NCBI GenBank assembly: GCA_051294375.1 | Contig: CM119269.1 | Span: 19,567,936 to 19,631,935 of the forward strand | Reading direction: 5' to 3' | DNA from: Paraspadella gotoi | Taxonomy: Eukaryota > Animalia > Chaetognatha | DNA length: 64,000 nt | In this document: piece after piece, positions 1,196 through 64,000 of the stretch | Numbering within the stretch: the stretch's first letter is position 1 | Layout: each line of letters begins with the position of its first letter | Made by a program: the position numbers and the translations under genes | The notes under the pieces: generated by a model | Database searches by the model: none | Told to the model about the DNA's origin: nothing | Seen by the model: the letters and a program-made list of their open reading frames with translations, nothing else

Positions 1196-1231
<36 letters not shown>

Positions 1232-4213: not shown

Positions 4214-4883
4214 NNNNNNNNNNNNNNNNNNNNNNNNNATGGGAGAGATGGGAAGAGAGGATGGGAGAGATGGGAAGAGATGATGGGAGAGATGGGAAGA
4301 GAGGATGGGAGAAATGGGAAGAGATGTCAAAAGAAAGTCAAAAATGGGGAAAACGGAAAATCAGAAATTGGGAAAGACGAAGGAAATGGAGGAATAGAAA
4401 ATCAGAAATAAGGAAAGACGAAGGAAATGGAGGAATAGAAAAGAGGAAATAGGGAAGAGCTCAAAACGGGACTGAAGGAAAAGAGAGAAAGAATCAGAAG
4501 GAAACAGAAGCCCTGGGACAAAGAGAGAAACCGCTTGGTCTGCTGACGACGAAGGAGAGGGAGAGATCGAGAGAAAGGGAACGAGAGGGAGGAAGAGAAG
4601 AGAGAGAGGAGAGAGAGAGAGAGAGAGAAGAGATGAGAAGGAGAGAAGAGAGAGATGAGAGAAAGGCGGAAATGCTTCTTGAACCTCCGTTAAGTGTCGT
4701 GTTATCAGCGACGCTTTATCAATTAGTCTAATGGGCGTCGACGCTGGGGACGACTGACGACGACGGTGGACGACGACGGACTAGTTGACGACGTGACGGA
4801 GCGTTGACGACGAGACGAGACGATGACGACGAATGACGACGAGGAAACCGTTTTCAGGAGAAATCGGACCAAAAAGTTTCAGA

Positions 4884-4962
<79 letters not shown>

Positions 4963-6789
4963 ACGAGAGAGCAGAAGGATAGGCTCAATGAATATGGAAA
5001 TATCTTCTTTCTTTTTTCCTCCTGTTCTNNNNNNNNNNNNNNNNNNNNNNNNNAAAAAAAAAAAAACTCGAAAAGTCTCAGCGAAGAAGAAAAGAAAGCG
5101 AGACTGAGTCAGACGCAGAGGGAAAAGAAAAGGAGAGAGGAAAAAGGAAGTATCGGGGAAAAGGTGAGACAGATAGAGACAGAGATACGAGGAGATGAAA
5201 GCAATAAAGATGGAGACGGAGAAGAAGCAAAAGTGAAAGATAAGAGGAGAACTTGTTAAATATAATGAATTTAACTAAACGAAGATAGAAACAGCAATAA
5301 ATATGAAGAATTTGAAATCTCTCTTGATCTTATTATATATTATTATTTCCTAGATTTCCTGGAAACATTTAACTTCGAATGTACAATGTACAATGCTACA
5401 ATCCGAAAAGCTTCACCATGGACCGACCGAAAAAAAAGGTGTTAAAGTGTAGCTGAGACGCACGAAAATGGAATCTGGAGAATTTCGACGAAATCGAAGA
5501 AGCGGAACGTAGATCTGGAGAAGCGAGAAAGAAAAAAATAATAGAAAAAAAAAGAAAAAAGGATAGAAAAAAGGATATAATGGGATGAAGTGAAATAAAA
5601 ATCGTAAAAGAGAGAAAATGACGAAAAGAGGTAGAGTTTAACAAAGATTGACAAATGAAGGACAGAAAAGGGGGAAAAATGATTACGAGAACAGATGGTA
5701 ATATAGTACATGATATACGATGTGTAAATCGTAAAAAAGAAAAAAAAACACGAGTTGGAGGTGAAAAAGTTGATGGGGATAAAAAAAATTAGTATTAAAA
5801 AAAAGGAGAAGAAGTGAAAGGAAATCTTTGAAAAGCGCTCATACATGTAAATGTTCTCGATGCCTCGGAGTCGAATCGCGTAAATGAATCCCGAGATTTT
5901 CTCTCAGAAAACTCGAATTTTCCTTTTCTCTTTCCGAATAAATTTTAATGGGATGAAAGGGATTCGAAAAATAGAGGAAAGGAGGAAAAAAATTGAAAAA
6001 AAAAGGGGGAAAAAAAGGGAAAAAAAAGAAGGAGAAAGAAATGGTGGAAGATAATGGGATTTAAGGAGAATTGGAAGAAGTTGAATGCGATGACGATGAT
6101 GACGACGGAAAATACGATGACGATGAGGCAGTTTACGATTCTGCTGATAATGTAGATGGCGACGACTTGGATCAACACGCGACGATAAGTTTGACTACAT
6201 TTTCCACCAAAATGTCAAATTTGTTGAAAAGAGAAACGATAGCAACGTCGATGATTATCATTGAGAGTTTTTAGATAGCTATAAAACTGTATTTAATCTC
6301 AGCCTATTTGATTTAAATTCGAATACATAGTCGTAACAATTATAAATCGACATAAGGTGATAATAAATTTCACGACGTTTAATTATAGACACGGCGAAAA
6401 AAAATTGGTGCCGCAATTTAATTTTTCCTCGAGATTTAATTTTTTTTTTTTTTTTTTATGATACGATCTCCGTTTTTCGACGGTTTTATTAATTGTCCTA
6501 TTAGAGCAAAAGCACAAAACATACTTTCCATCTTTTTCCATTCCATTACTTTTTAAAATTTTACATTTCCGTTTGGAATTCTGATTTTATGGCCTCGTTA
6601 TTTCTGAAATTAAAACAATAAAGAAAGATTTATTCAATAAAAAAAAAATTTGGATCTGGATTTTTAAAAAGAATTACCCCTTCAAAGATTTGGGGGCATT
6701 AACCCTGATTTCTTTTTTTTTTTTTTTTTTTTTTGCCGTTTTAGTCGAAGGTTCGTGCGAAGAAATTTCTTTTCTGTTTTGCTTCTCTT

Positions 6790-7125
6790 TTTATTTCTTC
6801 ATTTTATTTCTCGTTTTCTTTGTTTTTCTTTTCATTTCTTCATTTCTTCTCTTTTTCTGTTTTTCTTTTCTTTTAATTTCTCCATTTTATTTCGTTTTCT
6901 TTGTTTTTCTTTTCATTACTTTATTTTTTATCTTTTTTATGTTTTTTTTTTTCATTTTCTTTTTTTCTCTTTTTTCTGTTTTTCTTTTCTTTTCATTTCT
7001 TCATTTTATTTCGTTTTCTCTGTTTTTATTTTCATTTCTTCGTTTTTCTGTTTTTTCTCTTTTTCTTTTCATTTCTTCATTTTTTCTCTTTTTTCTGTTT
7101 TTCTTTTCATTTTATTTTGTTCTCT
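6790..7125. repeat. T-rich minisatellite, ~40-bp degenerate unit
   Basis: Recurrent cattttatttcgttttct and ttttcatttcttcat blocks. Confidence 0.7.
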
Positions 7126-7805
7126 TCTTTCGATTTCTCTTCCCTTCATTTTCCTTAGGCCTCGTGACACGTAAGGAAAATAATGAAATTCTTAAGGCTC
7201 CGTCTGAAAAAGTAAGTTGAGGTAAGTAACTCTCTCTTTCTCTCTCTTTTTTCTCTCTATCTCTCCTTTTCTCTCTAACTTTAGATTCGATTTCCAATAT
7301 TATCTCTTTCCTCCTTCCCTTCCTTTACTTTTCTATACTTGCTTTAATGACTCATTCTTTTTATGTTTCATTAGTTTCTTGCCCCTATAAACGTGACATG
7401 TTTTATTTGTATTCATATTTGCGTTTCATGTCCAATCTCATTCTAAATCTTTATTTTTTTTCTTCTTTCCTTTCCTTTTCGTTCGAGTCGCGATATTTCT
7501 GTCTTTTCTTCCTTTTACTGTTTCTCTTTCTGCCTCAGCTATCCTTTCCTCTTAATTCTTATCTTTTCTCTCACATCCTCTCTTCTCAGTCTTGTTCTTG
7601 ATGAGGTGCAGTTTAGAGACGCGAATTTCGTTTCTCCGTCACGTGATCGGTCGAGGAAGATGAGAGGGAAGAGAAGCAAAAAAAAAGAGAGGAAAAAGCG
7701 GAAAAAACGAATAAAAGGGAAAGAAAGAAAAGAGAGAGGAGAAAAAAAGGAGGAAAGAACGAGAGAGGAAGAGAGAAAAAGAGGTAGAAAAAGAACGAAT
7801 GCTGC

Positions 7806-7895
<90 letters not shown>

Positions 7896-8348
7896 AAAGG
7901 ATATTCAGGTATGCGAGGACGCTGAGGGGAAAAAAAGAAAGCCTTAAAAACACGAAAACGCATAGACTATAATGTTGCTTCATCGTCCCTCCCACTTCTC
8001 TTTTTTTCTTTTTCTCTTTCTACATATCTTTCTCTACAGTTGGCAGTTTAGTATTTCAAGGACTATTTTAATAAATAAATATAAATATCTCATAAATCCG
8101 AGTTCTAAAAGGAAATGTTACCTTGGTTTTTTCGGATGAAAAAACAAAACCAATTTTATATTCAAGTTTCAACTAGAATAAGTTCAAATATCCATCTATT
8201 ATGACTTTGAAAGGAATCGTAAAATTCACTGGGCTTAGCCTTTACCTCCATATTTTCGGATTCTATCTGGATTGCTTTCTTTCCTGGGCGTTTAACACAT
8301 GTTCATTCTCCATATAGTGCCTCTATTCTTTCTTCCCTGATTATATGC

Positions 8349-8393
<45 letters not shown>

Positions 8394-8496
8394 CTACCTT
8401 TCTTTCTCTTTTTCTCTGCCATGCACAAAGCAGAGGCTGAATTGAATTTTAATTAATAGATCCATTGGGAGAAATTTTTTTCTCATTTCCCGCGCA

Positions 8497-8615
8497 TCTC
8501 TGCGTGCGATTTAGTCTCTGCGTGGGTCCTAGTATCTGCGTGCGTTTTTGTCTCCGCGTGCGTCTTAGTCTCTGCGTGCCTTTTAGTGTCCTTTTAGTCT
8601 CTACGTCTCTGCGTC
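8497..8615. repeat. ~18-bp minisatellite (tctgcgtgcgtcttagtc)
   Basis: About 5-6 degenerate tandem copies are directly visible. Confidence 0.8.
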
Positions 8616-9410
8616 TCTTTTATTTTGTCACTAGTTCGGGTTCGAAATAAAGAGCGAGAGAAAAAAACAAAAATTTTCGCCGATAAAACAAACGCCGATA
8701 ATTATCGCGTTTAGCGGCATTTTTTTTTGGTGATGATAAAACTTTTATATATCTTTTTCGTCGCAAGCTTTTTACGAATTTGCTTGTTAAATCCAAGTTA
8801 ACGAAAGACTACGTTTGATGTGTCGCTTTAATTCTTACTAATCACGAAAAAAAAAAGATTAAATCGATACTCGTTTTAAAACAACCACAAGAGGGATTAA
8901 AAAGAAAACCAGTTTGATGGTAGAAAAGCAGAGAGAGAGATACGAGAGAGACGGACCAGCACGGAAGGAGAGAATACGCGGGAAGCAGGAGCGACGAGAG
9001 AGAGAGAAAGAGACAGACGATGGGAAAAAGAAGATGAGAGAAAGAGAACGAATGAGCCGATGCGAATTTGACCACGTTTTTGGCTTTTATTACCTTGTGT
9101 CTGCATCTGACCTGAAAAACGAGAAAAATCGAAGAACTGAGTCCAAATGGAAAAAATTGGAATTGAAAAAAAAAAAACATAGAAATGGAAAAGTGTCAAA
9201 ATGGAAATAGATTGAAAAGGATAGGTTGTGAAAAGTAATAAAAAGCAACTAGAGAAATATTTCGCGCAAGGAATGAAAATTGTCAAAATTAAACGTAATG
9301 ATGGAAAAGGTATGTAAAAGTAAAAAAATTTTATCTAAAGAAAAGAAGTCAATTTTTGTAGTTATTCGCGTGAATCATTGCGTATTAATCACGAAAGAAT
9401 CCGGAAACCA

Positions 9411-9508
<98 letters not shown>

Positions 9509-9596
9509 CAAGCTCGGCAGAGAGCGATCACTTTGGAAGATGGATGTTCGGTTGGTTCGGTGTTCGGGAACGAGAGCGCACCTTCTCTTTTTGGAG

Positions 9597-9687
9597 CTGT
9601 GATAGAACTGTGATAGAACTGTGATGGAACTTGGATAGAACTGTGATAAATGGCGATGGAACTGCAATGGCACTACGATGGAACTGT
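9597..9687. repeat. 11-bp minisatellite (gatagaactgt)
   Basis: Tandem gatRgaactgt copies that decay toward the 3' end. Confidence 0.85.
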
Positions 9688-11431
9688 TTTGAAATTTCGA
9701 GCTGCGACTATACGTAGCGGTGTTCGAATATGACGAGACTGCAATTGGTGAGATAATTAAATTAATTCGGGTAGGGCTTTATTAAGAAACAAAAATTACT
9801 AAATATCCACTTCGAAATAAAGAAAAAAACTAATTGAATAATAAAATTTTCTCATTAATGTTCACGTTTGCGTCGCTTCGTAATTATCTAGTTTATTAAG
9901 TCCTAACTAATTAGTTACAATTAAATCGGCTTCCCCCTTTTCACTCGGTCCGTTGACCAAAAATCCAGGTCAGAAATGGATTCCCTCCTCATAAATTCGG
10001 TCTCGGTTTCGACGGCTTAAGGGGATTGTCAATCGTGGCTTCGGAATGACGTTCTTTTTAATCGTTTTAGAATAATTTACTCAGTTCGAAGTATAAACTA
10101 AAAACGTTTAAATTCCGTTGTGAAACCCGTTGTTACTATCATTGCATTATTCATTTCTGATTTATTTTCATGTTGATAGGAATAGCCGATTAATTATTTT
10201 TTTATCAATATATCTATTTACCTGTAATCAGTTTTCAATCAATTTTCTCCGACGGAAAAAAATTTGAAATTTGAAATTTGAAATATACTTTAAAAAATAT
10301 ATTTTAAATATTTTTTGCATCACTTTATTGACTATTAGGTAGTAAATACTTAAAATAAATTTTACGAAAAGCAACATTCCGTCGACTCTTCTCGAGAGAA
10401 CAACGTCAACTATACCAAAATGTTGAGCACAACAACAACAACAACTTTTAACTCAATCACCCTTCGAAATATTCGTGACCTTAAATCGTTGAGATGAAAC
10501 GAAGACAAAAATTAGTTATTCATTTTTTTTTTTTTTGCATCTGGATGTTCAAGTCTTTCAGTTTTCGGCCCCTTTGGCGTTTTGGCCCTCGTACGATTTA
10601 TCCCCTTGAATTTTTCGGCACAATGAGAGTTTAACCTCTTAAAATATGGACTTGTACTTTCCACGTAAAAAACCGGGGACTTTTTTATGATTAGGCTACT
10701 TTATTCTTTGCTTTAGCTTCCCCGAGTATTAATCTTCATTTTCGGCTAAATCAAGTTTATCCACTGGATAAACATTTAGTCTTTGCCTCTGATCCGGAAA
10801 GAAAATCCATTGAAGTCGCTAACAAGTGAACGAGGGATTCCGCTCAACCTCAGCAAAAAGGAAAAAAGGCTACAAGTACAGAAATGTTTAGAGCTTCTTC
10901 TCCGCGTATAACAAGCGTCACATTATAGACGAACACCTTAAGTTACGCAGCAGAGCGGGACAATCGTATTGCAAACGAATTCCGAACCTCAACAGTAAAA
11001 ACTGCCGAGCATAAAGAAAGTAGTTCTTGGCGGCTGGGCGCCAAAAAATGTATTCAACTTCTTGAAATGGTGACATTACAGCGAGACGTGTCTATCCGAA
11101 ACGAAAGCGAACGTACAGTGGAACACGTGCGTCATTTTCATACTTTTTTTTATTCGTCCTGAAAAAAAAAAGTCCATTTTTATTTCGACGAAACGAAGAA
11201 ACAGGAAAATAAAAGAGAGAGAAAATGCAGGAGAAAAGAAAGAAGGAAAAAGAAAGAAACACAGAAGGGATAAAAGGAAGAGAAAATGGGGAAATTTCTT
11301 TGCCATGAAACCTATTATGGAGCAGAGAGAGAGAGAGAGAGAGAGAGAGAATTTCGGTTTTTTCCTATTCGTTTTTCCTCCGAAATCCAGTGTGGATGAA
11401 TTTAAAAGGAAAAACACGAAAGTTCTCTCTT

Positions 11432-11472
<41 letters not shown>

Positions 11473-11473
11473 G

Positions 11474-12076
11474 GAAAAAATTGGCTTACCTAAAAAGGTT
11501 GTTCTCTGAAACGGGAGTGCAAGCGACGTCGGGCGTGCGTCTCGACAACCGACGGCTTTTCCTTCGTTTGACACCCGGCCCGAGAAGGGAGTTGTGGTGG
11601 GAGGGAATGAGGTTGTGGTGAAAAAAAAAAGGCTTAAATTGCGCAAAGGATTTGGTTAATGTGGTGAAAAAAGGTACAAATGGAAAAAGAGATGGGATCA
11701 TGGAAGTGAATTTTAATGGTACCGAGTTGAAGATACATTGACCGCTGAAAAATGCTCGATGTCGTTGCAACATTAAAAGTTTTTACTGTGAGGACGATTG
11801 GGGCAAAAATGAATGGTAAATGATTGGGGTCGGGGTTTTCCGGGAGAGACTTTGAAACCAATCGGCGACGACAGGATTTTGACGGCCTCATCGGTTTTAA
11901 GCTGGATTTTAGGTTTTACGGAGAAAGGATTTCCTTTGAGTGATAAAAGGAAGGGTTATATTCAGTTCAAGCTTAGTTTGGAAAAGGGTCTTAACCCTAT
12001 CTTTGCAGGGAATTCATCCGGTGATGCAATCCTTCTTTCCAACCCTAATTCGTTCATTTATAGATTATTTCAATGA
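11474..12076. CDS. Probable coding exon, strand ambiguous, frameshifted
   Basis: Complex sequence between microsatellites. On plus, the acceptor ctctcag at ~11473 is followed by KKLAYLKRLFSETG..., and ORF 11813-12076 ends ...PIFAGNSSGDAILL. On minus there is a strong donor AG|GTAAGC near 11489. Confidence 0.3.
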
Positions 12077-12521
12077 TTTATAAATTTATTATTTATTCGT
12101 TCGTTCATTTATTCATTCATTCATTAATTCATCATTTCATTCATCAATTTATTCATCGAGTTTACTTCATTCCATTTGTATTTTATGTATATATTAACTC
12201 AGTCCTTCATGCCGTCGTTCACCTCCTGCATGAGAGCAATTCATGTGCTGATCAAACCTAATTCATTCGGCAGCCATTCATTCACACGGTTACTCAAGAC
12301 CAATACAACGTTACGCGGAATCTTTATCCAGGTCAAAACCCATTTGAAGCACAGAGAGCGAGAGAAAGAGAGAGAGAGACAGAGAGTGACAGAGAGAGAC
12401 AGAGAGAGGCATATAGAGAAAGAGAGACAGAGCTAGAGAGAGAGACAAACACCATCAAACTTTCAGTCAAAGAATTGAGAATGCAGAGGCTTCTAATTCC
12501 TCTGTCACAGATAGAAAAGAA

Positions 12522-29454: not shown

Positions 29455-30470
29455 AAATTGAGGAAGACGTTTCCAACAGTGGTCAGGGCAGTGGTGAAGG
29501 ACACAGCTGAAGGTGAGGAGAGGGAAGAAGTAAGTTTGTTTTAAAGTTTTAATTAATTTTAATGGGCACTTTATCTCTTGTGTACTATTAAGGCGTAGTA
29601 ATATTTCTAAAATATAACTTTAAATTAAAAATTCTAAAAGTGAGAATGAACACATTATAATCTAATGAACAATTTATATAATAAAAAAAATTGTATAGTA
29701 AATTTTACAATTTACAGCAGTAGGCATATTTAATAGTACTAAACCATAAATGTTAAAATTTCAAAACAGTTTTTTTCTTAGATTTTTTTTATGCAGATTT
29801 GGATTTGCGTCATAAAAAGTGATAAAAAGAAAGATAATTCTTTTTAAAAATTCTTTCATTAAGTGGTCAAAAATTAAGAAAAAGCCTATATTTAAAGCCT
29901 GAAAATTAACTTTTTATATATTAAATATATTTTTTTAAATTTGTTAAACCACTTAATGAAACAACAATTTTAAAAAAAATGATTTATATGAAAATTTGCA
30001 AATTATTGTTTCACTATTTTGTTTATTTTTATATTTTATGAAGGATTTTATTTCTTTTATAAAAACTTTTTGCGAGGGAATTCTAATCTTGTAATCAAAT
30101 ATTAAGAAAAGCCTATTTTGAAAATTTTTTTCAAGATTTATAAGGATAGTACTATATATAAATATAGCTTACTGCGAAATTAAAAAGCGATAAAATATTT
30201 TTTTTTACAAATTTTAATGTTCACTGATGGCTAGTGTTTGTTCATAATTGATTTTTAGAATTTTCATATGGTACTTTCTGCAGCCTACGGCCTTATTGTA
30301 CATTGGCTAATATGTATTGTTTAATTTTTTGCTCTCACACTCTCCTCTCTCTCTCTCTCCACTCTCTATTTAAGTTTTTCACAAACTTACTTCTTCCCTC
30401 TCCTGCACCTTCAGCTGTCCTCACATTCCCGGAACCACTGTCCTTATTCTATTGTGGAAATCTCTCAATT
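29455..30470. repeat. Inverted-repeat pair (~29455-29545 / ~30370-30470) enclosing the MITE
   Basis: cagctgaaggtgaggagagggaagaagtaagtttgt matches the reverse complement acaaacttacttcttccctctcctgcaccttcagctg. Confidence 0.8.
29592..30292. mobile_element. AT-rich foldback MITE, copy 1
   Basis: TTAA|GGCGTAG...CTACGGCC|TTAT ends, internal palindromy (cattaagtggt/accacttaatg; gcagtaggcatatt/aatatagcttactgc), and similarity to 46016-46643. Confidence 0.75.
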
Positions 30471-46015: not shown

Positions 46016-46643
46016 AGCATAGTAAAAAATTATTATTTAACTTTTTGATTAATTAATTTAATTAAAATTATAAAAGTGAGGAACCGAACAACCATTATAA
46101 TCTAATGAACAATTTCTGTATGAAAATGTATTTAAATTTTACAATTGCTCGGCTAGGCTTATTTATACATAGTACTAATCAATAAATGGTAAAAATTTCA
46201 AAAATAAGTTTTTGTAAGATTTTTTTTTGCTGATTTAGATTCATCATGAAAACTTGATGATTAAGAAAAATATAGACTCTTTTTTAAAATTGATGTCATT
46301 AAATGGTCAAATATGCAAGCAGAAAAACCTATATTTTAGCTAAATTTTAGCATGTTAAATATAGTTTTTTATAATGTTTTAACGGCTACTTAATGAAAAG
46401 AATTTTTAAATGAATTATATTTACTTTTATCAACTTTTGACACGAAATTCAAAATCTGCAATCAAAAATTGAAGAAAAGCCTATTGTTGAAATTTTTGAT
46501 TTTATAAGGATGGTACTATATATAAATATAGCCTTACTGCGAAAATAAAACTATAATTTTTTTTTTTACAAACATGTTACTAAAATATAAGAATGTTTCA
46601 TGATTGATTTTAGATTTTTCGTAACGTTAACTTTCACTACGCT
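46016..46643. mobile_element. AT-rich foldback MITE, copy 2
   Basis: AGCATAGTAAAA...TTTCACTACGCT TIRs; shares blocks (cattataatctaatgaacaattt; gtactatatataaatatagc) with 29592-30292. Confidence 0.8.
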
Positions 46644-47903: not shown

Positions 47904-50900
47904 TCTACAGACACCAATGAAAGAAGAAAGGATTATAAACACATGGATGTTTATCATAGTACATTCATATTCATATTCATGATGCAAGTTCTAAAATAAA
48001 GGCGTAATCGGTAATATAAAAAAAAGTTTAACATATTTTTATTTTTAAGGTGGTCCACTATTAAAGAGTCACGTGATCAAATTACATGGCCAGAAAAAGC
48101 AAACACTTGAGCTTGCCGGTTCTTGATTCATTGGTAGTAGATTAATATTTTTCTTTTCAGTGCGAAAGAGTGAAAGAGCGATTAATTGGTGCTGCAATGA
48201 AAGTCTTGGTCCCCTCAAACAATGCAGGGAAAAAATATAACAGAATTGTGACTAATGGAATTAAAAGGTATTGAAATACTGGAATATTCTAAAATGAGAA
48301 AATTATGTTTATTGACAAGAATCTTTTATTTTATCAAGGAGCATAAAAATCATTGTGTTGTTACTTACTGGAAGATCATCGACTGCAGGACCCAAAGTTT
48401 TTTGTGGAGGAGATTAAGAATATGCTGGCAGCTGTAACTTTTATGTTATCAAAATATCCTAATCTCTTCTCAAGAGGATATTTCAAAAAAACAATCAAGT
48501 TAAATATTGCTAGCAGATGCCAGAAAATTATTGTTTTTAAAAATGGTAATTATTTCTTAGTAATAAAGCTTTGGTGATTTTTGTATGCTTCTCTCGCAAT
48601 GCTCGGAAGCATAAAATTAATGAGATTACTCCATGTTGACTTACAAAAATTTTGAGTGCGCCTGAGGAGTATAACGCGTTTAACTAGTAGCTCATGCAGG
48701 AATGACGCCTAATTTTTTTTTAAAATCTGATGAAATAAAAATTCTTTGTAAAGAAAAAAAAAACTTTTTTGAAGGTCTCAAGTTTTAATGCGTATTTCTT
48801 AGCTTAACCGTCTAAAGAAGATAAGAATGACCCTGATCCAAAGTCTGAAAGTTATTATTCCGAAATTTGATCATTGACCTTTAAGTTCTCGTCGAAAAGA
48901 TAACTATAAATTACTTTAAAACAGATTTTTAAGAGGCATTGGTGCTATGGCTGAGTTCCTATGAAGCCCTTAAAATCTTTCTCGTTAGAAGATCGTGGTT
49001 TTCCTTACCGAGATACGACGAAAGACGCGACCAGAGAGAAAAAAAATAACCATAAAAGTTAGTTTTTTCTTCTTCTTTTTTTTTAAATTTAGGGATTTCA
49101 CGACGAAAGAATTAGCGACTTGGGAATATTAGCGTTTTAGCTGCAAAGTTCAGCTCCACAGAAAGGTATAAACATTGGAACGATGTTAAGCAGGAGAGAA
49201 AATTATATTATTTTTCTTTTAAATTTGTTTTTTGCGTGCAAAGATAGTTTAAAATATGACAGCTTGACATTTCCGGATGTTTGTTGTTACAATTGGCCGA
49301 AAGTGAATGTTAAACGTTTCCTATTTCAGTGCCTCTCTTGCTCTCTCTCTGCTGTCTCTCTCTCTCTGTCTCTCCGTTCATCTCTTCTCGTTCTCTTCTC
49401 GCTCTCTTCTCTGCTCTCTCTCTCTCTCGAACCGCTCCAGTCACATACATTTGCCCCCCCCTCTTCACCTCCCTCGTCTCTGAATCTCGTATCAGGATTT
49501 ATCAGATCGCTTTCCCTTAAATATTCTTTTCTATTTCGTTAATTCGATAACCCCCAAAAGAAAAAGGAGAAAAAAGAAGGGAAAGAAAAAAAGAAAAAAA
49601 ATCGACCGGGCGGACGAAATGGATTCTTATTTTCTGCCTCCTTTTTTGGGCGCTCAGAAAACCGCGGTATCGAGAGATCGAGAGAGAGAGCAGATGTGAG
49701 AGAATGAGAGGAAAGCAAAGGAAAGAAGATGAGTAGGTAATGATAAAGAGAAGGAAGAGAGAGAGAGTAATTGATGAGAAGAGAGAGTAAATGAGTCTAA
49801 AAGATGAACCGAAGTATGATGAAAGTAAATGAAGCGTGCATGCGCATAGAACCATACAGGGCATAAGAATTCTCCTAAGCTTTTCCAGGCCATCACGTAC
49901 TCGCCTTACACAACAATAGATTGAAAAAAAGATGTGGATGACTGTCTGCGTAAAGTAGTGGATACAGTACTTGTTTTGATATTAAAAATATACTCTTCTG
50001 TTTTTAGTTGCAACTAACGAGTTAAGAATTACTTAGTTTGGATATGGCAGAGGATTACATTCACGCTAGCGGAAAGACTCTTTTCGATCCCTTAAGCGTC
50101 GGCAAATGACCACGAGGTACAAGTCGTCTATGCTAATCTCAAAACAATGATGAAACAATGAGTAAATAATGTTAAGGAAAAGCGATCATGGACAAAAACG
50201 TAATAACGACAACCTTGGCTAAGGACCAAACTGGCCGAATTCGATTCGCTGGCAAAGTGCGATGCAGCGTCTTGGTGACGCTGCGTGGCGGCTACTGTCT
50301 TTGGCCGCTGGGCTTCTCTGCTTCTGACAACTGATCGTACTCGGTCCTCGGTCCGAGATAAACGGAGAAAGTGAGAGAAAGGCAGAGTGACCCGAGCGAG
50401 GCAAAAGGAGGACAGGGCCCTCTTCTTCTCTCTTCGTCTGCCGGCTGAGACGAAGATTACGCGCCTTTCTGCCTCACTATCTTTTTTTTATTTCTGCTCT
50501 TCTTTCTTTCTTCTTCTTTTTCTCCTTCATTTCCTTCCTTCCTTCCTTTCCGTTCCTCTTGTTCATTCATGTCATTCGAACATTCATTCATTCATTCCTG
50601 GACATCCATTATCTCTTCCTGCCATTCCTTCTTCCTTCCGTTCCCTTCTCTTCTCCTTCCGTTCTATTCCTTATTCTCATTATCATTCACATCATCATTA
50701 TTCTCTCATTCATTATTATTCATTAATTCATTCACTCCTTCTTTCTTCCTTCTTTCCGCTTCCTTTACTTTTTTTTCTTTCCTTTCCTTTCCTTTCCTTT
50801 GCCTTTCCTTTCCTTTCCTTTCACTTTCGCTTTCCTTTCTTTCCTTTCGTTTCCATTTCCTTCCATTTCCTTCTAAACATTTATTCCGCTTTCCCTATTT

Positions 50901-51247
50901 TCTCACTTCTTTAATTATTTTATATAAGATTATTTTCTACTCGTCCCATTCCTAACAAGTCTAAGGATAGTAAAGGAATAATTTTGATAAGGAATTGTTA
51001 TTACAAGAAGTTAAATTGCAGAAAATTTTACAATAACTATTTATGCTGCCAATGGATAGAAAGATTACAAAAAGGAAAATTAACAATTATTCATTATAGT
51101 TTTCACCGAATAAGAAATTATTCAGCCTCAAGATACTCTTTGTTTGCTTCGTTTAAGTAAATTTTCCATTTTCACTTAATTAGCAGCAATCGCATCACAT
51201 TCGCAAATCCGGTCATAATTATTTTTACGAGTCTAGAATTGGTTCCG

Positions 51248-54200
51248 CTAGACCCACCCGCTCCCCCTCTTCTTGCCCTTGGCCATCGTCTTGTGCAACG
51301 ATTAAAGCGTTCGTCGCAACTGTTAAACAAACGGGAGAGAGTTTCGTTAGCTCAAGCGTTTTGTTCAAGGTTTCAATCGTTAAAGGCACAAACGACTTGT
51401 ATAAAATTAAATGTTAACCTTCAAAATATTTATTTCACTCGGCGGTTCACTTCCACGCGTCATTTTACCTTCCGATCGTCGAAGCATTTCGCGCCTTGGG
51501 AGATTTTTCGGCGCCCTGATGGACCTTTTTTTCTTTTCGAGGGTCTTTGCATTTCGCCGTCTTTCCCGGCATTTGGTAGTTTTCAGAGCACGAACGAAAG
51601 AGACGATATGGACGCCTGTGAGGCTTGGGACGGCTTTTGGTGCATGCTCCGAGTGTCGCATGGGGCGTCTATCGGTTTTTCCAATCAAAAAGAAGCATGT
51701 TGTTATCTTTTTTTGATCTTTTTTATCGTTTTTAACATCAGAATAAATGTCACTAAGTCTATCGAGCACTGGGTCGATTCTCCTCTATCTCTCCCCTCAA
51801 GAAATTGCCCGCACTGCACCCCGTAATCACCCCCCGAGAAAAGGTTCTCGGCCCGCGAACCCTTCTCTTCTTCCGCGCGGCGGAGGAGGCGGCATCTGTC
51901 GAACGATTGTCCGTTCTTTGTCGTTGTCCATCGTCGTCCTTTCCTTCGGCGGTCAGACACAAAACGTCGTCGTTGTTTTTGATCATCAGATTCCTTCGAC
52001 GGACCCTTGAGCAGCAATTAAACTTTGCGGCAGAACAGCAGCAAGAGCTAACGGCGAGTTGTCTGATCAAATGCTAAACGAACCTTCACTGCGACTCCTT
52101 GGAAGTTTCCGTCACTTTTTCGATTCTTGCAACGAAGCGCGATGATGACTGTCGACGATGACGAGACGGCAACTTGGGATTCTGAGGAGAAATTTTCGGT
52201 TCATATCACGAGAAATTGTCAGAAGAAACTGAGGAGCGGCCTCCGAATACATCAATCCCAACACTGCTTTGCAAGCTGAGCGCGATACAAAGTTGGATAG
52301 ACTTACCCCGCCCTTAACTGACCTTAACTCTATTTCTTGTTTATGTGTGTGACAGAACTGTTGGTTTGTTGACGATGGAGCGTGGAGTCTGAACCCATCG
52401 AGGATTCACCTTCTGCAGATTTTTCGGTTCAGTGAAGGGGCAGTCTGGAGCGGCTGCTCTCGGTCGACGGGAGGCAAGTGTCTCCACTGGAGCCTGAAAG
52501 AGCAGTTTCATTCGATGAGGCTGAGTCGACGGAGGTTACGATTGCAAGTTCGGCTGGCTGGGTTGCAGGAGGTGTGGTGCACTGGAGGCTGGCTCTCGCT
52601 CTCGCTTCTCGTGCATATGAGGTCGCTTATTTGTTTAACTGTTGAGGTGTTGATAAGAACGGGTCGCGCGGCTTATTTGTCAACAGAGACGTCTTCTGGC
52701 GTTGGTAACTGTTATGCCCCGCTCTTCCTTTTGGAATGCGACTGATTATTCGTCCTTGTTGACAACTGGCTGGTTTTCTTTGTCGGGTTGTCTCTGCTAG
52801 TCGAACTGTGGATTGCCTGTGGATTCTGTTGATTTTTTTTTCTGATTTTCCGACCGGGTTGGGCTGCTGATTGTCCGCGCTCTGAATCGCCTCGTGTCGT
52901 CGTCTGTTTGGGTGCATTGACTGGCGATGCCTCCTCGCGTCCTTTTTGCGTTTTTCCGAACTTCGAAAGAAAAAAACGTACAAAATTTTAATCGCCAATT
53001 TAATTCTAGTCGATTAACCTACGTTAGAGAAATATAAGTGATGAGCAAAAGTAACAGAAGCTTCGAGGCTGGGCATCGTCTGCTTACTCTGGGCATAGAA
53101 GGCGGTTTGATTGGCTCAAGCAAAGCTCATCGACATTGCCTTGCTCCAAATGTCTCTGTCGCGCTTGATCTGACGAAAAAAAATCATATCGTTAAATATT
53201 CATGGTGTAAAAAATGATAGATTAATTATTTATTGTTGCAAGTATTTTTACTCAGATCGAAGGCCGCTTGTGTTCGACTAAGTTGGGGATGTCCGGCAGA
53301 GCTGAGATTGGCGTCTGGCCGCGATCAAACTCATTAGAAGACGCGGTCTTCCAAATATGCAGCGTGACATGGTATAAAGTAGATAGGTATTGTATATGTC
53401 CTAAAACTAAAGACAAATACACATGAAATGTACGTGAGTTGAATATAATCTATGGAGGACTAAAGATCCACACAGGAAGTCACGTTCATGTGCAGCGGCA
53501 TTGGTGCCGGAGGGCAAGTCAGCTTCGCCTACCAACTCAAAGGTGCGCGGGAATTCTCACGAACCGGATGGGCCGCCTAGCAGTTAAGAGGGACGGGGCA
53601 ACTTAAACGCCGCGCTGTAACATGGTGTTACAGCTGATCCGAAGCTCAGGGACTGCTTAACTGAATGGTTTCTGTCACTAACCATAAGCCAATAATTACT
53701 GTCTCTTCAATTGTGACTCGACTTCGAACACAACAGCAGAGCAACAACATTTTCAGGGCATGCCTCAACCTGGCGATGGCACTTTCCGCCAAGGCCGATA
53801 ACAAATCAGGCGACATGCCTCAAACTTGGTGAAGCGCACTTCCACCAACAACTACAATTCACTGAAGAAATGCCTAAAACAGACTTCTGCGCTTCGTGGG
53901 AGGGGGGGTGTATGGTGAACTAAAATCCACCAACTGCGTTGATAGGCGGCGCTTAAGGTATGGGAGGCGTACGGCATGCAGCGACCATTGGTGCGCAGTG
54001 GCGCAAGTCATTCGCCCCCAACCCAGAAGGTTCGGGGTTCTACGCGCGGTGGCCGCTGAGCAGTTAAGAGGGACGTGGCGCTTGGACCGCCTGGAAACCA
54101 TGGTGTTACAGATGCCTGATCGCGAAAGCTCAGGGAGCTGCTTATTGAATGGTCCGTCACTAAACTCATAACAATAATGTACTGTCCTCTTCAAGAATCG

Positions 54201-54675
54201 AATAATCTAACCAACCTTTTGGCAGAACCAAATGGTGCTTGTTCACTGCGCGAAGAAATTTTGCCTGGCGACTATGATCTAACGAAGCGGTTAGACTGAC
54301 CCAGGAGACTATTCGACATTGCTTGGCTCCATATGTCTTGTTTGGATTGGCCTCGGAGGAATGAAAAATTTTAAAATGTATAAACTGAATTGTACGTCAC
54401 ATGTTATCTATATTATTTGTGAATATCACAATCATGTTGTCCTTGTAATGACCAGATTGCTGGTCGTCCGCCCTGATTTGGGCGACGGACGACGATGCTG
54501 CAACCGGACTGAGCCAATGAGACGTACATCGTCGATGCGTTCTCCTCAAAGGTCTGGATTTTTGGAAAGGAGAAGTATAATGAGACAAATTTACGCCCCA
54601 TCCAAGCTTTTGATTCAAAGGGTTCCAGAGCGGATCGTCACTGAATCGCGAATTCTATTGGTGGACCAGATTTTG
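51248..54675 (-). CDS. Copy 1 of the DxW-repeat gene (indel-corrupted, cut by a gap)
   Basis: Colinear with 57196-60410; many frameshifts. Confidence 0.6.
53495..53657 (+). ncRNA. tRNA-like head + twister ribozyme, copy A (indel-noisy)
   Basis: AGCAGTTAAGAGGGACGGGGCAACTTAA...CTGTAACATGGTGTTACAGCTGATCCGAAGCTCAGGGACTGCT; counterpart of 59329-59479. Confidence 0.7.
53981..54142 (+). ncRNA. tRNA-like head + twister ribozyme, copy B (indel-noisy)
   Basis: Counterpart of 59753-59902; A-box-like TGGTGCGCAGTGG is visible. Confidence 0.6.
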
Positions 54676-54833: not shown

Positions 54834-57195
54834 NNNNNNNNNNNNNNNNNNNNNNNNNNNNNNNNNNNNNNNNNNNNNNNNNNNNNNNNNNNNNNNNNNN
54901 NNNNNNNNNNNNNNNNNNNNNNNNNNNNNNNNNNNNNNNNNNNNNNNNNNNNNNNNNNNNNNNNNNNNNNNNNNNNNNNNNNNNNNNNNNNNNNNNNNNN
55001 NNNNNNNNNNNNNNNNNNNNNNNNNNNNNNNNNNNNNNNNNNNNNNNNNNNNNNNNNNNNNNNNNNNNNNNNNNNNNNNNNNNNNNNNNNNNNNNNNNNN
55101 NNNNNNNNNNNNNNNNNNNNNNNNNNNNNNNNNNNNNNNNNNNNNNNNNNNNNNNNNNNNNNNNNNNNNNNNNNNNNNNNNNNNNNNNNNNNNNNNNNNN
55201 NNNNTTTTTTTTCTAATTAGATCATATTCGAAAACCAAACTATCGATGTCGTTAAAATCTTTCTCGTTAAAATCGTGGTTTTCTTAACGAGATACGCGAA
55301 GACGCGACCAGAAGAAAAAAATAACCATAAAAAGTTAGTTTTTTTTTCTTCTTTTTTTTAAATTTAGGATTTCACGACGAAGAAATTAGCGACTTGGGAA
55401 TAATTAGCGTTTTAGCTCAAAGTCTCAGCTCCACAGAAAGGTATAAACATTGGAACGATGTTAAGCAGGAGAGAAAATATTTATGTATTTTTCTTTTTTA
55501 AATTTGTTTTTCGGCCAAAGATTTTAAAATATGACAGCTTGAACATGTNNNNNNNNNNNNNNNNNNNNNNNNNNNNNNNNNNNNNNNNNNNNNNNNNNNN
55601 NNNNNNNNGAAGAGATCGACGAAGAGAGCAGAGAGGAGAGGGTCTGAGAGACCCATCTGAAATAGAAGGACAAGTCAAACGGTTAACAGTTCTCGACTTT
55701 CGCCATGTGTGATAACAAACACCCGGTACAAAAAAATCGACGGCGGACGAAATGGATCTTTTTTCTCCTCTTTTTTGGGCGAAACCGATATCGAGGATCG
55801 AGAGAGAGAGAGAGGAGAGAGACGAGCAGCACGACGACAGAGAGAGAGAGAGAGAGAGATCTGATCCGGTGACGTCTCGAGGAACATCAGGGCAAGAATT
55901 TTAAGACTTTTCCGGCATCACGTTCCCTCACAAAATAGTATTAAAAAAGATGTCGGATGGTGTCTGCGTAAAATGTAATACTAAGTACTTGTTTGATATT
56001 AAAAATATATCTTTTTTTCAATGAAGAGTTTAGAAATTACTTAGTTTATATTGGCAGAGGATTACATTCACGCAGCTGAAAGACTCTTTTCGATCCTTAG
56101 CGTCGGCAAATGACCACGAGGTACAAAGTCGTCTATGGCCAATCTTCAAAACAATGATAAACAATGATAAAAATGTTAAGGAAAAGCGATATGGACAAAA
56201 CGTATTAACCGACAACCTTGGCTAAGGACAAAACGAATCGGCAAAGGACGTCAGCTCGGGACAAAGCGCGTCGGCTAACCTTGTCGGGCGCGGGCCTCGT
56301 CTTCCAACCTTCGCCTACTCGGGTCCTCGGGTCGCGAAGATAAGCGGAGAAGGAAGAGAAAGGCAGAAGTGGAGGGCAAAAGGAGCGACAGCCTCCTTCT
56401 CCTCCTCTTCGTCTCCGGACTGAGACAAATTGCGACGCCTTTCTGCCCTCACATCTTTTTTTTTATTTCTGCTCCTTCTTTTCTTTCTTTTCTTCCTTCC
56501 TTCCTTCCTTCCTTCTTCCTTCTTCCTTCCTTCCTTCCTTCCTTCCTTCCTTCATCATTCATCGGACATCATTCATTCTATTCTGGTCATTCTTTTTTTC
56601 CCAAATCACATGGTCCTTCCCTTCCTTCTTCCTTCTTTCCTTCCTTCAATTTATTTCCTTCATTCACTGCATTCATTCATTTATTCATTAATTCATTCAC
56701 TCCTTCCTTTCTTCCTTCCTTTCTTCCTTCCTTTACTTTTTTTTCTTTCCTTTCCTTTCCTTTCCTTTCCTTTCCTTTCCTTTCCTTTCCTTTCCTTTCC
56801 TTTACATTTCCTTTCGTTTCCTTTCCTTTACATTTCCTTTCCTAAACATTTATTCGCTTCCTATTTCTCACTTCTTTAATTATTTTATATAATTATTTTC
56901 TACTCGTCTCCATTCCTAACAAGTCTAAGGATAGTAAAGGAATAATTGATAAGAATTGTTATTACAAAAGTTACAATCAGAAATTTACATACATATTTTC
57001 ATCTGCAAATGATAAAAGATTAAAAAGGATAACAATTATTCATTATAGTTTCACCGAAATAAGAAATTATCAGCCTCAAGATACTCTTTGTTTGCTTCGT
57101 TTAAGTAAATTTTCCAATTTTCACTTAATTAGCAGCAATCGCATCACATTCGCAAAATCCGTCATAATTATTTTACGGAGTCTAGAATGGTTCCG

Positions 57196-60100
57196 CTAGA
57201 CTCCACCCGCTCCCCCTCTTCTTCCCTTGGCCATCGTCTTTGCACGATAAAGCGTTCGTCGCAACTGTTAAACAAACGGGAGAGAGTTCGTTAGCTCAAG
57301 CGTTTTGTTCAAGAGTTCAATCGTTAAAGGGCGACAAACGACTTGATAAAATAAAATGTTAACCCTTCAAAATATTTATTTCACTCGCGTTCACTTCCAC
57401 GCGTCATTTTACCTTCCCGATCGTCGAAGCATTTCCGGCCTTGGGAGATTTTTCGGCCCTGATGACCTTTTTTTCTTTCGAGGTCTTTGCATTCGCCGTC
57501 TTTCCGGCATTTGTAGTTTCAGAAGCGACGAAAGAGGACGATATGGACGCCTGTGACGCTTGGGACGCTTTGGTCATGCTCCGAGTTCGCATGGGCTCTA
57601 TCGTTTTTCCAAAAAAAAGAAGCAATGTTTTATCTTTTTTGATCATTTTTTATCGTTTTTAACATCAGAATAAAATTGTCACTAGTCTATCGAGCACAGG
57701 GTCGATTCTCCCTATCTCTCCCCTAGAAATTGCCCCACCACCCCGTAATCACCCCCGAGAAAAGGTCTCGGCCCGCGAACCCTTCTCTTCCGCGTCGGCG
57801 GAGGAGGCGGCATCTTCGAACGATTGTCGTCTTTGTCGTTGTCATCGTCGTCCTTTTCCTTCGGCGTCAGACACAAAACGTCGTCGTTGTTTTGATCATC
57901 AGATTCCTTCGACGGACCCTTGAGCAGCAATACAACTTTGCGGCAGAAACAGCAGCAAGAGCAACGGCGAGTTGTCTGATCAAAGCTAAACGAACCTCAC
58001 TCGACTCCTTTGGGGTTTCCGTCACTTTTTTCGATTCGTCAACCGAAGGCGATGATGACGTCGACGATGACGAAGACGGCACTTGGATTCTGAGGAGAAA
58101 TTTTCGGTTCATATCACCGACGAATTGTCAGAAGAAACTGAGGAGCGGCCTCCGATTCAAATCCCACATCTTTTCAAAGCTGAGCCGATACAAAAGTTGG
58201 GATAGACTTACCCGCCCTAACTGACCTTACTCTATTTTCTTTTTGTTTCACAGAAGTTGGTTGTTTGACGATGGAGCGTGGAGTCTGACCCATCGAGGAT
58301 TCGACCTTCTGCAGTTTTTCCGGTTCAGTGAGCAGCTCGGACGGCTGCTCGGTCGACGGAGGCAAGTTCTCCACTGGAGCCTGAAGAGCAGTTTCATTCG
58401 ATAGCTGAGTCGACGGAGGGTTAGATTGCAGGTTCGGCTGCTGGGTTGCAAGCTGGGGTGATGGAGGCTGCTTGTTCGTCTGCTCAGAGGGCTTATTTGT
58501 TAACTGTTGATTTGATAAACGGGTCGCGGGCTTATTTGTCAACAGAGACGTCTTCTGCGTTGGTAACTGGATCCCCTGCTTCTTTTGAATCGACTGATTA
58601 TTCGCCTTGTTGACAACTGGCTGGTTTTCTTGTCGGGTTGTCTCTCTAGTCGACCTGTGGATTGCCTGTGGAGTTGCCTGTTGATTTTTTTTCTGATTTT
58701 CCGACCGGGTTGCCTGCTGATTTCCCCTCTGAATCGCCCCGTTCGTCGTCTGTTTGGTCATTGACTGCGATGCCTCCTCGCTCCTTTTTCGTTTTCGAAC
58801 TTTCGAAGAAAAAAAACGTACAAAAATTTTAATCCCATTTAATTCCTAGTCGATTAACCCTACGTTAGAAAAATAAAGTGATGAGCAAAAGTAACAGAAG
58901 CTTCGAGCTGGGCATCGTCTGCTTACTCTGCATAGAAGCGTTTGATTGGCTCAGCAAGCTCATCGACATTGCCTTGCTCCAAATGTCTCTGTCGCCTTGA
59001 TCTGACGAAAAAAAAAATCATATCGTTAAATATTTTCATGGTGTAAAAAATGATAGATTAATTTATTTATTGTTCAAGTCATTTTTACTCAGAATCGAAA
59101 GGCCGCTTGTTGTTCGACTAAGTTGGGATGTCGGCAACGGATCTGAGATTGGCGTCTGCCCGATCAAACTCATGGAAGACGCGGTCTTCCAAATATCAGC
59201 TGACATGGTATTAAAGCTAGATAGTATGACATGTCTAAAACTAAAGACAAATACACATGAAAGTACGTGAGTGAATATAAAATATATGGTGGACTAAAAT
59301 CCAACTACAAATCGCGTTTGCATTTCAAGCGGCCATTGGTGCCGGAGCAAGTCATTTCGCTCTCCCAACTCAAAGGTCCGGGGTTCTAGACGCGTGGCCG
59401 CCTAGCAGTTAAGAGGGACGGGGCACTTAACCCGCCTGTAACATGGTGTTACAGCCTGATCCGAAGCTCAGGGACTGCTTATACTGAAATGGTTCTGTCA
59501 CTAACTCATAACAATAATTACTGTCTCTTCATTGGTGAAACTCGACTTCCGAACACAACAGCAACAACAACATTTTCAGGCGACATGCCTCAACCTGGCG
59601 ATGCACTTTCCGCCAAACAACAAATCAGGCGACATGCCTCAACTTGGTGACGCACTTTCCACCAACAACTACAATTCACTGAAGAATGCACAGACTTCTC
59701 CTTCGGGGAGGGGGGATGTATGGTGAACTAAAATCCACCAACCGTTCATCCAGCGACCATGTGTGCCGGAGGCAAGTCATTCGCCTCCCAACCCAAAGGT
59801 CCGGGGTTCTAGCCCGGTGGCCGCCTAGCAGTTAAGAGGGACGGGGCGCTTAACCGCCTGTAAACATGGTGTTACAGCCTGATCCGAATCTCAGGGACTG
59901 CTTATATTGAATGGTTCGTCACTAACTCATAATCAATAAATTACTGTCTCTTCAAATCGAATAATCTAATCCAAACCTTTTGGCAGAAACAAATTGCTGT
60001 TCATCCGAAGCAATTTCCTGGGCGGACTCTGATCTATCGAAGCGGTAGACTGACCCAGGAGACTCATCGACATTGCTTGGCTCCATATGTCCTTGTTGGA

Positions 60101-60446
60101 TTGGCCTCGAGGAATGAAAAATTTTAAATGTAATAAACGTGAATTTGTACGTACATTATACATATTATTTGTGAAATATCACAATCATTTGTCACTTGTA
60201 ATGGACCAATTGCTGGTCGTCCGCCTGATTTGGGCGACGGACGACGATGCTGCAACGGACTGACCAATGAGACTCATCGTCGATGCCGTTCTCCAAAGGT
60301 CTGGATTTGGGAAGGAGAAAGTATAATGAGACAAAAATTACCCATCCAAGCTTTTGATTCAAAGGGTTCCAAGCGGATCTCACTGAATCCGAATTTATGT
60401 GACCAGATTTGATTTTATCTACCTAATCCGACCTGCGTCTGATTAC
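57196..60446 (-). CDS. Multi-exon gene of unknown function with 4 DxWxxAxxMSLxxQ repeats and a Q/N/T/S-rich, basic (nuclear-like) C-terminal part
   Basis: GT-AG exons 60300-60196, 60105-59977, 59199-59089 and 59001-58927 (all phase 1-1; 105/129/111/75 nt), 58799-~58230 (RKRKRSEEASQSM...), ~58178-57681, 57597-57413 and 57264-57196 (stop). The 5' end is not defined. Confidence 0.75.
59329..59402 (+). tRNA. tRNA-Gly(CCC)-derived head (pseudo-tRNA), unit C
   Basis: Acceptor stem GCGGCCA/TGGCCGC, A-box-like TGGTGCCGGAG, anticodon loop CTCCCAA, B-box-like GGTTCTAG; the anticodon stem is imperfect. Confidence 0.65.
59404..59479 (+). ncRNA. Twister ribozyme, type-P5 permutation, unit C
   Basis: P5 AGCAGT/ACTGCT; P2 GG/CC; GA + T1' CGG pairing with L4 CCG; P1 GGCACT; U^AA cleavage motif at 59428/9; T2 GC(59434-5)/GC(59466-7); P3 TGTAACA/TGTTACA; P4 CCTGA/TCAGG with loop TCCGAAGC. 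Confidence 0.85.
59753..59825 (+). tRNA. tRNA-Gly(CCC)-derived head, unit D
   Basis: GCGACCA...TTCGCCTCCCAA...CCGGGGTTCTAGCCCGG-TGGCCGC. Confidence 0.65.
59827..59902 (+). ncRNA. Twister ribozyme, unit D (L4 AAGC>AATC weakens T2)
   Basis: Same fold as unit C; P1 GGCGCT is palindromic with G-U ends; U^A at 59851/2. Confidence 0.75.
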
Positions 60447-62084: not shown

Positions 62085-63019
62085 GAAGAGAGAGATAGGC
62101 AGACAGCAGACACACAGACGACAGACTTACACAAAGACAGAGAGAGACACAGACAGACAAAAAAAAATATACGTTTTATTCCGCGAAGCAAAAGTTATTG
62201 CATTTGGTAATTGGATAGTCCTTGCAGAAGCGAAAATCTATTTCTAAGAAAAGAGTCTGATGAGAGAAAGAAATGGAGATAGACAGTGCGAGGGAGAGGG
62301 AGAGATTTTTCTATGGAGAAGCCTGGAAAAGGTTCATTCATTCCGCTTTTCATTTCCCTCTAATTTCTTTCTCGTTTTTTTTCGCTTCATATATTTTTTT
62401 TTGTATTTATATTTTCCTGTTTTTCTTCTTTTTTTTTCAGTCCCCGCCATTTACAGCGCCTTTTTCTTCCTCTTATTTCTTTTCTATTTTTTTTTTCCTT
62501 TTTCTTTTCTGTTGCCTTCTCTCTTTCAGTTTCATTTTCTCGGCTAATTGAATTTTTCAGTGTTTCCTGTTCCTCCTGTTCCTTCTTGATCATCCGCCTT
62601 ATCCTCGTCCTCCTCCTTCTCCTCGTCCTCCTCGTCCTCCTCCTCCTCCTCCTCCTCCGATTCTTTTTCTTTCTCTTTCCCTCTACTTCCCCTTCTTTTT
62701 TTCCTTCCTTTTCCCCAGAGTTCTCTTTAATTTTCTTTAATCCTTTTCCCGCTGGGCTTCCCCACTCTGCCTTACCTGTTCCTCGCTACTTACTTTTGAC
62801 CATTTACTTTCTTCTCTCTCGATTTATCCGATCCTCACTCTTTTCCTCCTTCATTCCTCCCCTTTTCTTCCCCTCTTCTCCCTTCGATTGACTCAAGGAG
62901 AAAAATTATCGCTTTCGTCGACGTAATGACTTCAATTCCGTCGAATCTCATCCTCTTCCTCCTCGCTGCTCCGCCCCTCCTCCGGCCCCCACTCCCCTTT
63001 TCGTCTTTTGTCTTTCTTC

Positions 63020-64000
63020 CCCACCCTCTCTTTATACCTAGCTTTTTCCGCCCCCTTTCTCCTTCCTTCAACTCCAACGCGCCCCTCCTTTTCTCTTTTC
63101 TTCTCTCCCACCTCTCTTTATCCTACTTATTTTCCCCACCTTTCTCCTTTGCCTTCAACTCCATACGCGCCCCCCTCCTTTCTCTTTTTCTTCTTTCTTC
63201 CCACTTCTTTATCCTCATCTATATTTCCCCACCCTTTCTTCCTTCTTCAACTCCAACCGCCCCGCCTCCTTTTCTCTTTTTCTTCTCTTCTCCACCTCTC
63301 TTATCCTACTTATTTCCACGCCTTTCTCCTTTTTCAACTGCCAACCGCCCCCTCCTTTTCTCTTTTTCTTCTCTTCCCACCTCTCTTTATCCTACTTATT
63401 TCCCACCCTTTCTCCTTCTTCAACTCCAACCGCCCCCCTCCTTTCTCTTTTTCTTCTCTTGCCCACCTCCTTCTTTATCCTACTTATTTCCCCACCCTTT
63501 TCCTTTCTTCAACTCCAACGCCCCCACTCCCTTTTCTCTTTTTTCTTCATCTCCCACCTCTCTTTATCCTACTTGTTTTCCCCACCTTTTCTCCTTCCTT
63601 CAACTCCAAACCGCCCCCGCTCTTTTCTCTTTTTCTCTCTCCACCTCTCTTTATCCTACTTGTTTTCCCCCCCTTTCTCCTTCTTCAACTCCACGCGCCC
63701 CCCTCCTTTTCTCTTTTTCTTCTCTCCCACCTTCTTTATCCTAACTTTTTTCCCCACCCTTTCTCCTTTCTTCAACTCCAACCGCCCCCCTCCTTTTCTC
63801 TTTTTCTTCTCTTCCCACCTCTCTTTGTTATCCTACTTGTTTCCCCACCCTTTCTCCTTCCTTCAACTCCAACCGCCCCCCTCCTTTTGCCTCTTTCTTC
63901 TCTTCCCAACGCTACTCTTATCCTATGCTTGTTCCCCACCGCTTCTCCCTTTCTCAGACTCAACACCGCGCCCCTCCTTTCTTCTCTTTTTTCTCTTCCC
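63020..64000. repeat. Pyrimidine-rich ~88-bp satellite, ~11 units, running off the window end
   Basis: caactccaaccgccccc...cccacctctctttatcctacttatttccc recurs every ~86-97 bp. Confidence 0.9.

Follow-up and report, generated by a model that had tools for sequence, protein, structure and literature searches.

A twister-like ribozyme motif with a six-base palindromic P1 in a high-copy miniature LTR element of Paraspadella gotoi

The element and its family

The window analyzed here is a 64,000-nt stretch of the Paraspadella gotoi genome (CM119269.1, assembly GCA_051294375.1), to which all positions refer, and the features described below lie on its forward strand. It contains a non-coding LTR-type element of 672 bp, made of an LTR, a PBS-like site, an interior, a polypurine tract (PPT) and a second LTR. 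The 5' LTR (unit C, 59283..59531, 249 bp), as delimited by alignment with the 3' LTR, starts with TA and ends with CA, and the 3' LTR (unit D, 59717..59954, 238 bp) runs from TG to CA; the alignment between C and D has 221 identities, 13 mismatches and 19 gaps. The internal region (59532..59716, 185 bp), non-coding and present in many family copies, includes a 49-nt repeat in two copies (59576-59669). The PBS-like site (59533..59550), which we judged by its position and its TGG start, begins one base past the terminal CA of the LTR, and the PPT, 12 purines at 59705..59716, abuts the TG of the 3' LTR. The PBS-like site may resemble the 3' end of tRNA-Trp; the 64-kb window contains no tRNA gene for comparison, and contig depth indicates that C differs from most family copies at 59539-59542. 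The longest ATG-initiated frame anywhere in the element has 53 codons, and Pfam searches with 33 of the 122 long frames of the window gave no match. No target-site duplication (TSD) was seen at the locus, where the sequences flanking C and D differ and the left flank is read differently in an error-rich duplicate described below.

Units C and D had originally been predicted to be tandem twister copies, a description that has to be given up in favor of the two LTRs of one element. A tandem satellite and a Penelope pseudo-LTR were both considered and rejected, because the PPT, the PBS-like site and the TG...CA ends point to a true LTR element. The ribozyme motif sits in both LTRs of this non-coding element, as in the definition of an LTR retrozyme, and the TRIM-like features are all present, namely short repeats (TG...CA in D, TA...CA in C), a short non-coding interior and a dispersed high copy number. 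Diverged repeats (71-80%) flank the element on both sides (58932-59018, 60036-60122 and 60258-60301), which suggests insertion into an older repeat. Elsewhere in the window we noted a pyrimidine-rich tandem array with a period of ~88 nt, which reaches the window end (62992-64000), and an AT-rich, MITE-like self-inverted repeat (46155-46534) with a second copy at 29620-30278.

Part of the element is present in 12 of the 14 sequencing runs listed, nine of them from one organism and three studies. Contigs from runs X1, X3 and X9, one from each of the three studies, were mapped on 59250-59730 (8059, 1574 and 588 contigs, respectively), whereas X10, X11 and X12 contributed 2, 0 and 1 contigs, which are small shares. 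Contig depth in X1 climbs from 719 to 12,163 at 59284, the start of the 5' LTR, and is highest over the ribozyme motif, summed contig depth being a quantity distinct from copy number. Directly past 59531, 182 (X1), 121 (X3) and 51 (X9) contigs run into unlike flanks. Since hundreds of distinct flanks follow the LTR end, we conclude that the element is a member of a dispersed high-copy family.

Two further units, A (about 53440-53907) and B (about 53909-54194), lie inside a duplicate (49857..54673) of 55888-60410, which has 84% identity and 333 gap openings and stops at an N gap. Comparison of the duplicate flank with the original revealed 21 mismatches as against 257 gap letters, of which 193 are insertions, and on the strength of this indel-dominated error spectrum the duplicate is probably a false duplication made of a raw long read, that is, an assembly artefact. 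At the P1 hexamer, located at 54077-54082 in B, A has the reading of C and B that of D. A reading as four independent units was therefore rejected: A and B lie within an indel-ridden duplicate of the C/D locus, so that the window holds two independent units, one of them palindromic. The false duplication beside N gaps also takes in 55205-55548, and other findings in the window may count twice. Unit B has ~35 extra bases at 53935-53975 that are absent from D and include another GGCGCT, probably a low-quality stretch of the read.

The twister-like motif in the two LTRs

The motif in C (59404..59479) has the element order of a type-P5 twister. By the listed pairings, it comprises P5 (59404-09/59474-79), P2 (3' strand 59413-16, 5' strand 59431-33), the catalytic G-A pair of L1 (59417-18), the T1 3' strand (59419-21), T2 (59434-35/59466-67), P3 (59436-54) and a 5-bp P4 (59455-72) with an 8-nt L4 (59460-67). 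From twister anatomy, cleavage is predicted at the U-A step 59428..59429, within the U-A-A cut site (59428-30). The motif in D (59827..59902) also has the U-A-A and the G-A pair, and its predicted U-A cleavage site (59851..59852) lies 423 nt from that of C. Both pseudoknots, T1 (3 bp) and T2 (2 bp), are complementary in C, and T2 is broken at 59889 in D as assembled. Element order and motifs of ribozyme C match the Schistosoma mansoni table and the Rfam consensus lines, and its fold has a z of -2.78. When the window and the motif were scanned against Rfam, no twister was reported, whether the cutoff was the gathering score or an E of up to 5-10, and the window gave no hammerhead.

Several positions depart from known twisters. 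L4 is closed by A-U instead of G-C, and one T1 pair is swapped relative to Osa-1-4. In the published double-mutant matrix of Osa-1-4 (supplement of PMC5113685), in which pairs were measured one at a time, the equivalent L4 double mutant G23A/C32U keeps a relative activity of 0.85 and the same T1 swap, C27G/G47C, keeps 0.86, as against 0.13 for C27G alone. The 5' strand of P2 has 3 nt in the whole family, where no indel reaches 1%, versus 4 bp in the twister consensus. Two phage type-P5 twisters that pass Rfam (L130 and L139) also align with a 3-nt P2 strand.

Family variation was followed in variant rows covering 59431-59453 for the P3 region, where the P3 loop is variable (13% and 53% of X1), neither a change in the P3 stem nor any indel reaches 1%, and P2 and T2 bases are altered at 1-2%. 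A common family change at 59404 keeps the end pair of P5, as G-U. The T1 base at 59463 is altered in 14% of the depth of X1 and in 3-4% of X3 and X9, as expected of decaying copies. Compared with C, ribozyme D lacks one C of P2, has one more A in P3 and carries U in place of G in its T2 pair (59889). In Osa-1-4 the corresponding base is G30, and whichever base replaces it, relative activity is <0.2 (PMC5113685); D as assembled is predicted to be inactive; duplicate B reads G at this place, and the U may be an assembly error. Because D has U for the T2 G and C has no palindrome, this locus is probably a decayed copy. Judged by its sequence, the motif is a twister variant, likely self-cleaving, which we treat as outside RF02684; Rfam would in that case overlook a twister variant that one genome contains in very many copies.

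The P1 hexamer

In C and in D, exactly 6 nt separate the T1 3' strand from the predicted U-A cut site. This P1 hexamer is GGCACT in C (59422..59427), where a G-to-A change at a CpG, private relative to most copies, leaves it non-palindromic, and GGCGCT in D (59845..59850), which is self-complementary with G-U ends and represents the family form. A six-nt P1 had also been ascribed to B; the readings for C and D stand, while B, as a duplicate of D, is no independent witness. In agreement with the predicted self-complementarity, GGCGCU forms a 6-bp self-duplex of -8.3 kcal/mol, compared to -2.1 for C with C and -2.9 for C with D. The expectation that the hexamer would stay palindromic across copies was borne out as well: position 59425 reads G in 97.0% (X1), 99.8% (X3) and 99.4% (X9) of contig depth, in three studies, which makes the palindrome the form of the family and C its deviant. 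It is position 4 of the hexamer that was measured directly; the other positions are absent among the 40 of 127 variant rows listed.

With G-U pairs allowed, 216 of the 4096 hexamers (5.3%) are self-complementary, 47 of the 4096 self-pair at least as strongly as this one (8 of 256 among hexamers of the form G....U), and 3 of 50 chance pattern matches carry a self-complementary hexamer (0/28 from metagenomes, 3/22 from genomes). As one family is one draw, the palindrome taken alone is significant only at the 1-5% level. No covariation was found in this one family with its one hexamer, and the pattern scans found no relatives with another hexamer: viral contigs gave 0 matches, and the 28 metagenome and 22 genome matches include a 5-bp P4 in 0 of 50. 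A stretch in a Bacteroidetes MAG (L030:100-147), itself selected by pattern, has a weak Twister-P5 score of 16 bits (E 1.3), with a six-base P1 that is perfectly palindromic and a 3-nt P2 strand; its P4 is imperfect, and it may be a chance match.

We compared this length with P1 of other type-P5 twisters. RF02684 in whole genomes gave matches in 0/5, 2/151, 1/2 and 0/151, and 97 phage and bacterial type-P5 loci were gathered, many of them found twice; 86 could be parsed into 27 distinct P1 segments, which sample one subgroup since the gathering patterns demanded one T1 sequence. All but one of these segments (26 of 27) form hairpins that are 15-34 nt long with 6-14 bp, and long P1 hairpins occur also where the predicted P5 duplex equals P5 of this element in strength. 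Five of the 11 unparsed loci (L051, L052, L087, L130 and L139) have long P1 hairpins by eye or by Rfam alignment, and one (L110) is type P1. An apparent counter-example, the 6-nt P1 of L081 and L089, was rejected as the junction of two tandem type-P1 twisters. By this sequence comparison, a six-base P1 is clearly abnormally short for a type-P5 twister. Among the phage loci we also noted that L089:20-112 (also L081) consists of two type-P1 twisters placed head to tail with few bases between them, and that the long P1 loop of the type-P5 twisters at L130:58-123 and L139:83-140 contains a second U-A-A-like module.

Secondary-structure energies, in which pseudoknots are uncounted, agree with the claim that P1 is too short for a stable hairpin, closing it as such costing a modeled +3.9 kcal/mol relative to the open form. 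Pairing of P1 between copies, also proposed originally, is favored in the model for two D copies but holds in part at this locus, where C with D gives no full palindrome duplex: the P1 duplex would gain a swapped dimer 8.6 kcal/mol for D-D, 3.2 for C-D and nothing for C-C. Two misfolded monomers are more stable than any of the swapped dimers, by 7.9-18.3 kcal/mol, and no swapped dimer came out of unconstrained cofolding. Monomer C is predicted to have an off-state 9.9 kcal/mol below the native-like secondary structure: a hairpin in which the 5' strands of P2 and T2 are paired with the T1 3' strand and the catalytic G, and whose 8-nt loop contains the hexamer. A circle joined cut site to cut site favors the same blocked pairing by 6.6 kcal/mol, and the unit-length RNA is 52% paired (z = -0.56). 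The palindrome would thus help a dimer, in a model that can show it neither needed nor enough.

A possible dimeric twister and its relation to known systems

Our main reading, to which we assign a probability of roughly 0.45, is that two copies pair through P1 and would then cut faster than one alone. A transcript across both LTRs would carry two twisters ~430 nt apart. A lone copy would drop into the off-state hairpin, with the catalytic G buried and the hexamer exposed in the loop, and two copies could meet via their hexamers to form a 6-bp P1 duplex. With halves swapped, the 5' half of one copy joined to the 3' half of the other, two active cores would form as in double hammerheads, and once both sites are cut, a unit-length RNA would be released that is probably circularized. 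Priming at the PBS might then let the reverse transcriptase of an autonomous partner element of LTR type copy this RNA, and host transcripts running through solo LTRs would be spared by a preference for dimers. In favor of this reading are the palindromic family form, the abnormal length of P1, the compensated pairs that retain activity in Osa-1-4, the variable P3 loop beside a constant stem, the modeled gain from a P1 duplex together with the off-state of monomer C, and the LTR ends with PBS-like site and PPT. There is precedent in Penelope-like elements, whose hammerheads with a short palindromic helix III are established to cut as dimers (PMC6765202, PMC7761336). More tentatively, and with the odds against it, the family may represent the first dimeric twister, an LTR retrozyme family whose P1 has shrunk to a palindrome, so that cutting and circularization are confined to two-LTR transcripts or paired RNAs. 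If this is true, an unrelated ribozyme fold has reached the trick of minimal hammerheads independently.

Pairing through P1 has to be weighed against a monomer that cuts well, with P5, P2 and the pseudoknots holding the core, the hexamer serving as a short linker (a G-U pair with a four-base loop, or open) and the palindrome being founder chance, an account we regard as rather unlikely although much of the published work speaks for it. Twisters without P1 are reported to cleave at almost the wild-type rate (PMC5408937), P1 mutants are robust and P1 defects harmless for cleavage (PMC5113685), and the same holds for P1 defects in natural twisters (PMC11662667); the tolerance of a shortened P1 allowed for in the original prediction is in line with these results. 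The dispensability of P1 in such tests, in contrast to hammerhead helix III, counts against the dimer, as does the fact that one conserved sequence is not covariation. The missing Rfam match, the lack of a visible TSD, the unremarkable stability of the unit-length RNA and the energy deficit of the swapped dimers also weigh against our main reading. Moreover, the 6-7-bp P5 closes the monomer, and ~1-5% of hexamers are as good by chance (3/50 in the chance matches). However, the published P1 tests used open-ended type-P1 constructs and not a closed six-base linker; natural type-P5 twisters retain a long P1 hairpin, a monomer has the competing off-state predicted by the model, and the P3 loop varies in the family while hexamer changes beyond that of C itself are absent among the listed rows.

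Two other explanations set aside the cutting reaction or the part of P1 in it. That the motif is inactive, either a twister-derived fossil or a structure kept for another reason, is consistent with the lack of an Rfam match even at E 10 and with the 3-nt P2 strand in place of the 4-bp consensus, P2 length having been suggested to matter in twisters; in addition, several departures are combined here, whereas each pair was tested singly in another twister. It is nonetheless improbable, as C keeps all catalytic and pseudoknot positions, with compensated pairs, natural twisters tolerate P2 defects (PMC11662667), L130 and L139 pass Rfam with a 3-nt P2 strand, and contig depth peaks at the motif. 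We consider it very doubtful that the palindrome is an RNA dimerization signal for packaging by a helper Gag, of the kind known from LTR retrotransposons and retroviruses, with little role in catalysis. The host element is of LTR type, the modeled off-state hairpin would show the hexamer in an 8-nt loop, and Ty1 RNA dimerizes via short palindromes (PMC6844567), but the palindrome lies exactly at P1 and is so placed that the base following T1 pairs with the one preceding the cut-site U, a placement that would be needless for packaging. A twister that requires a partner would, if true, be new to its class and would explain why P1 is kept though dispensable in open constructs.

From the sequence evidence we conclude that this is a real high-copy, twister-bearing miniature LTR element whose P1 is abnormally short and palindromic. 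In our full-text literature search, with most subscription papers and the CHiTA supplement outside its scope, we found neither a twister in an LTR nor a dimeric twister, and the L4 motif has at least 11 occurrences in the Naiad supplement (PMC8557442), of which the four examined are not twister-like. With the type-P5 twister RF02684 (PMC5408937, PMC10085705) the motif has in common the element order, U-A-A, the G-A pair, T1/T2 and P4/L4; it differs in having a P1 of 6 nt instead of a 15-34-nt hairpin, a P2 5' strand of 3 nt, an A-U pair closing L4, one swapped T1 pair, a long P3, no Rfam match and a location in a eukaryotic LTR. RTE elements are known to carry twisters at their 5' end (PMC8501958, PMC7761336). 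The Perere-3 T-variant twisters of S. mansoni (PMC8501958) are likewise retroelement twisters with a weak or missing P1 and a long P3, but they are of type P1, and the non-LTR (RTE) element has just one, at its 5' end, whereas the twister described here is of type P5 and duplicated in LTRs.

Minimal type I hammerheads of Penelope-like elements and non-LTR retrozymes (PMC6765202, PMC7761336) likewise have a short palindromic cut-site helix and two copies per transcript; here the ribozyme class is another one, the repeats are true LTRs and not pseudo-LTRs or a tandem array, and twister P1 is dispensable in tests where hammerhead helix III is not. TRIM or miniature LTR elements (PMC4918200) resemble the element in size, short LTRs, PBS, PPT, non-coding nature and high copy number, and what sets it apart from them is the ribozyme motif and that no TSD was seen. 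Retrozymes have been defined by their hammerheads, and LTR retrozymes have been described from plants (PMC4918200, PMC7761336). The plant elements (Cervera et al. 2016, PMC4918200; PMC7761336) are also non-coding, with a ribozyme in both LTRs, a PBS and a PPT around a short interior and a ribozyme predicted to be blocked in the unit-length RNA. The element described here has a twister-like motif and not a type III hammerhead, is smaller (LTRs of ~245 bp and a unit of ~430 nt), shows no TSD, and has a unit RNA that is 52% paired in the model, as against the >70% reported for the plant elements (PMC4918200). A twister in the slot of the retrozyme hammerhead, if true, would make the circular-RNA strategy of retroelements independent of ribozyme class.
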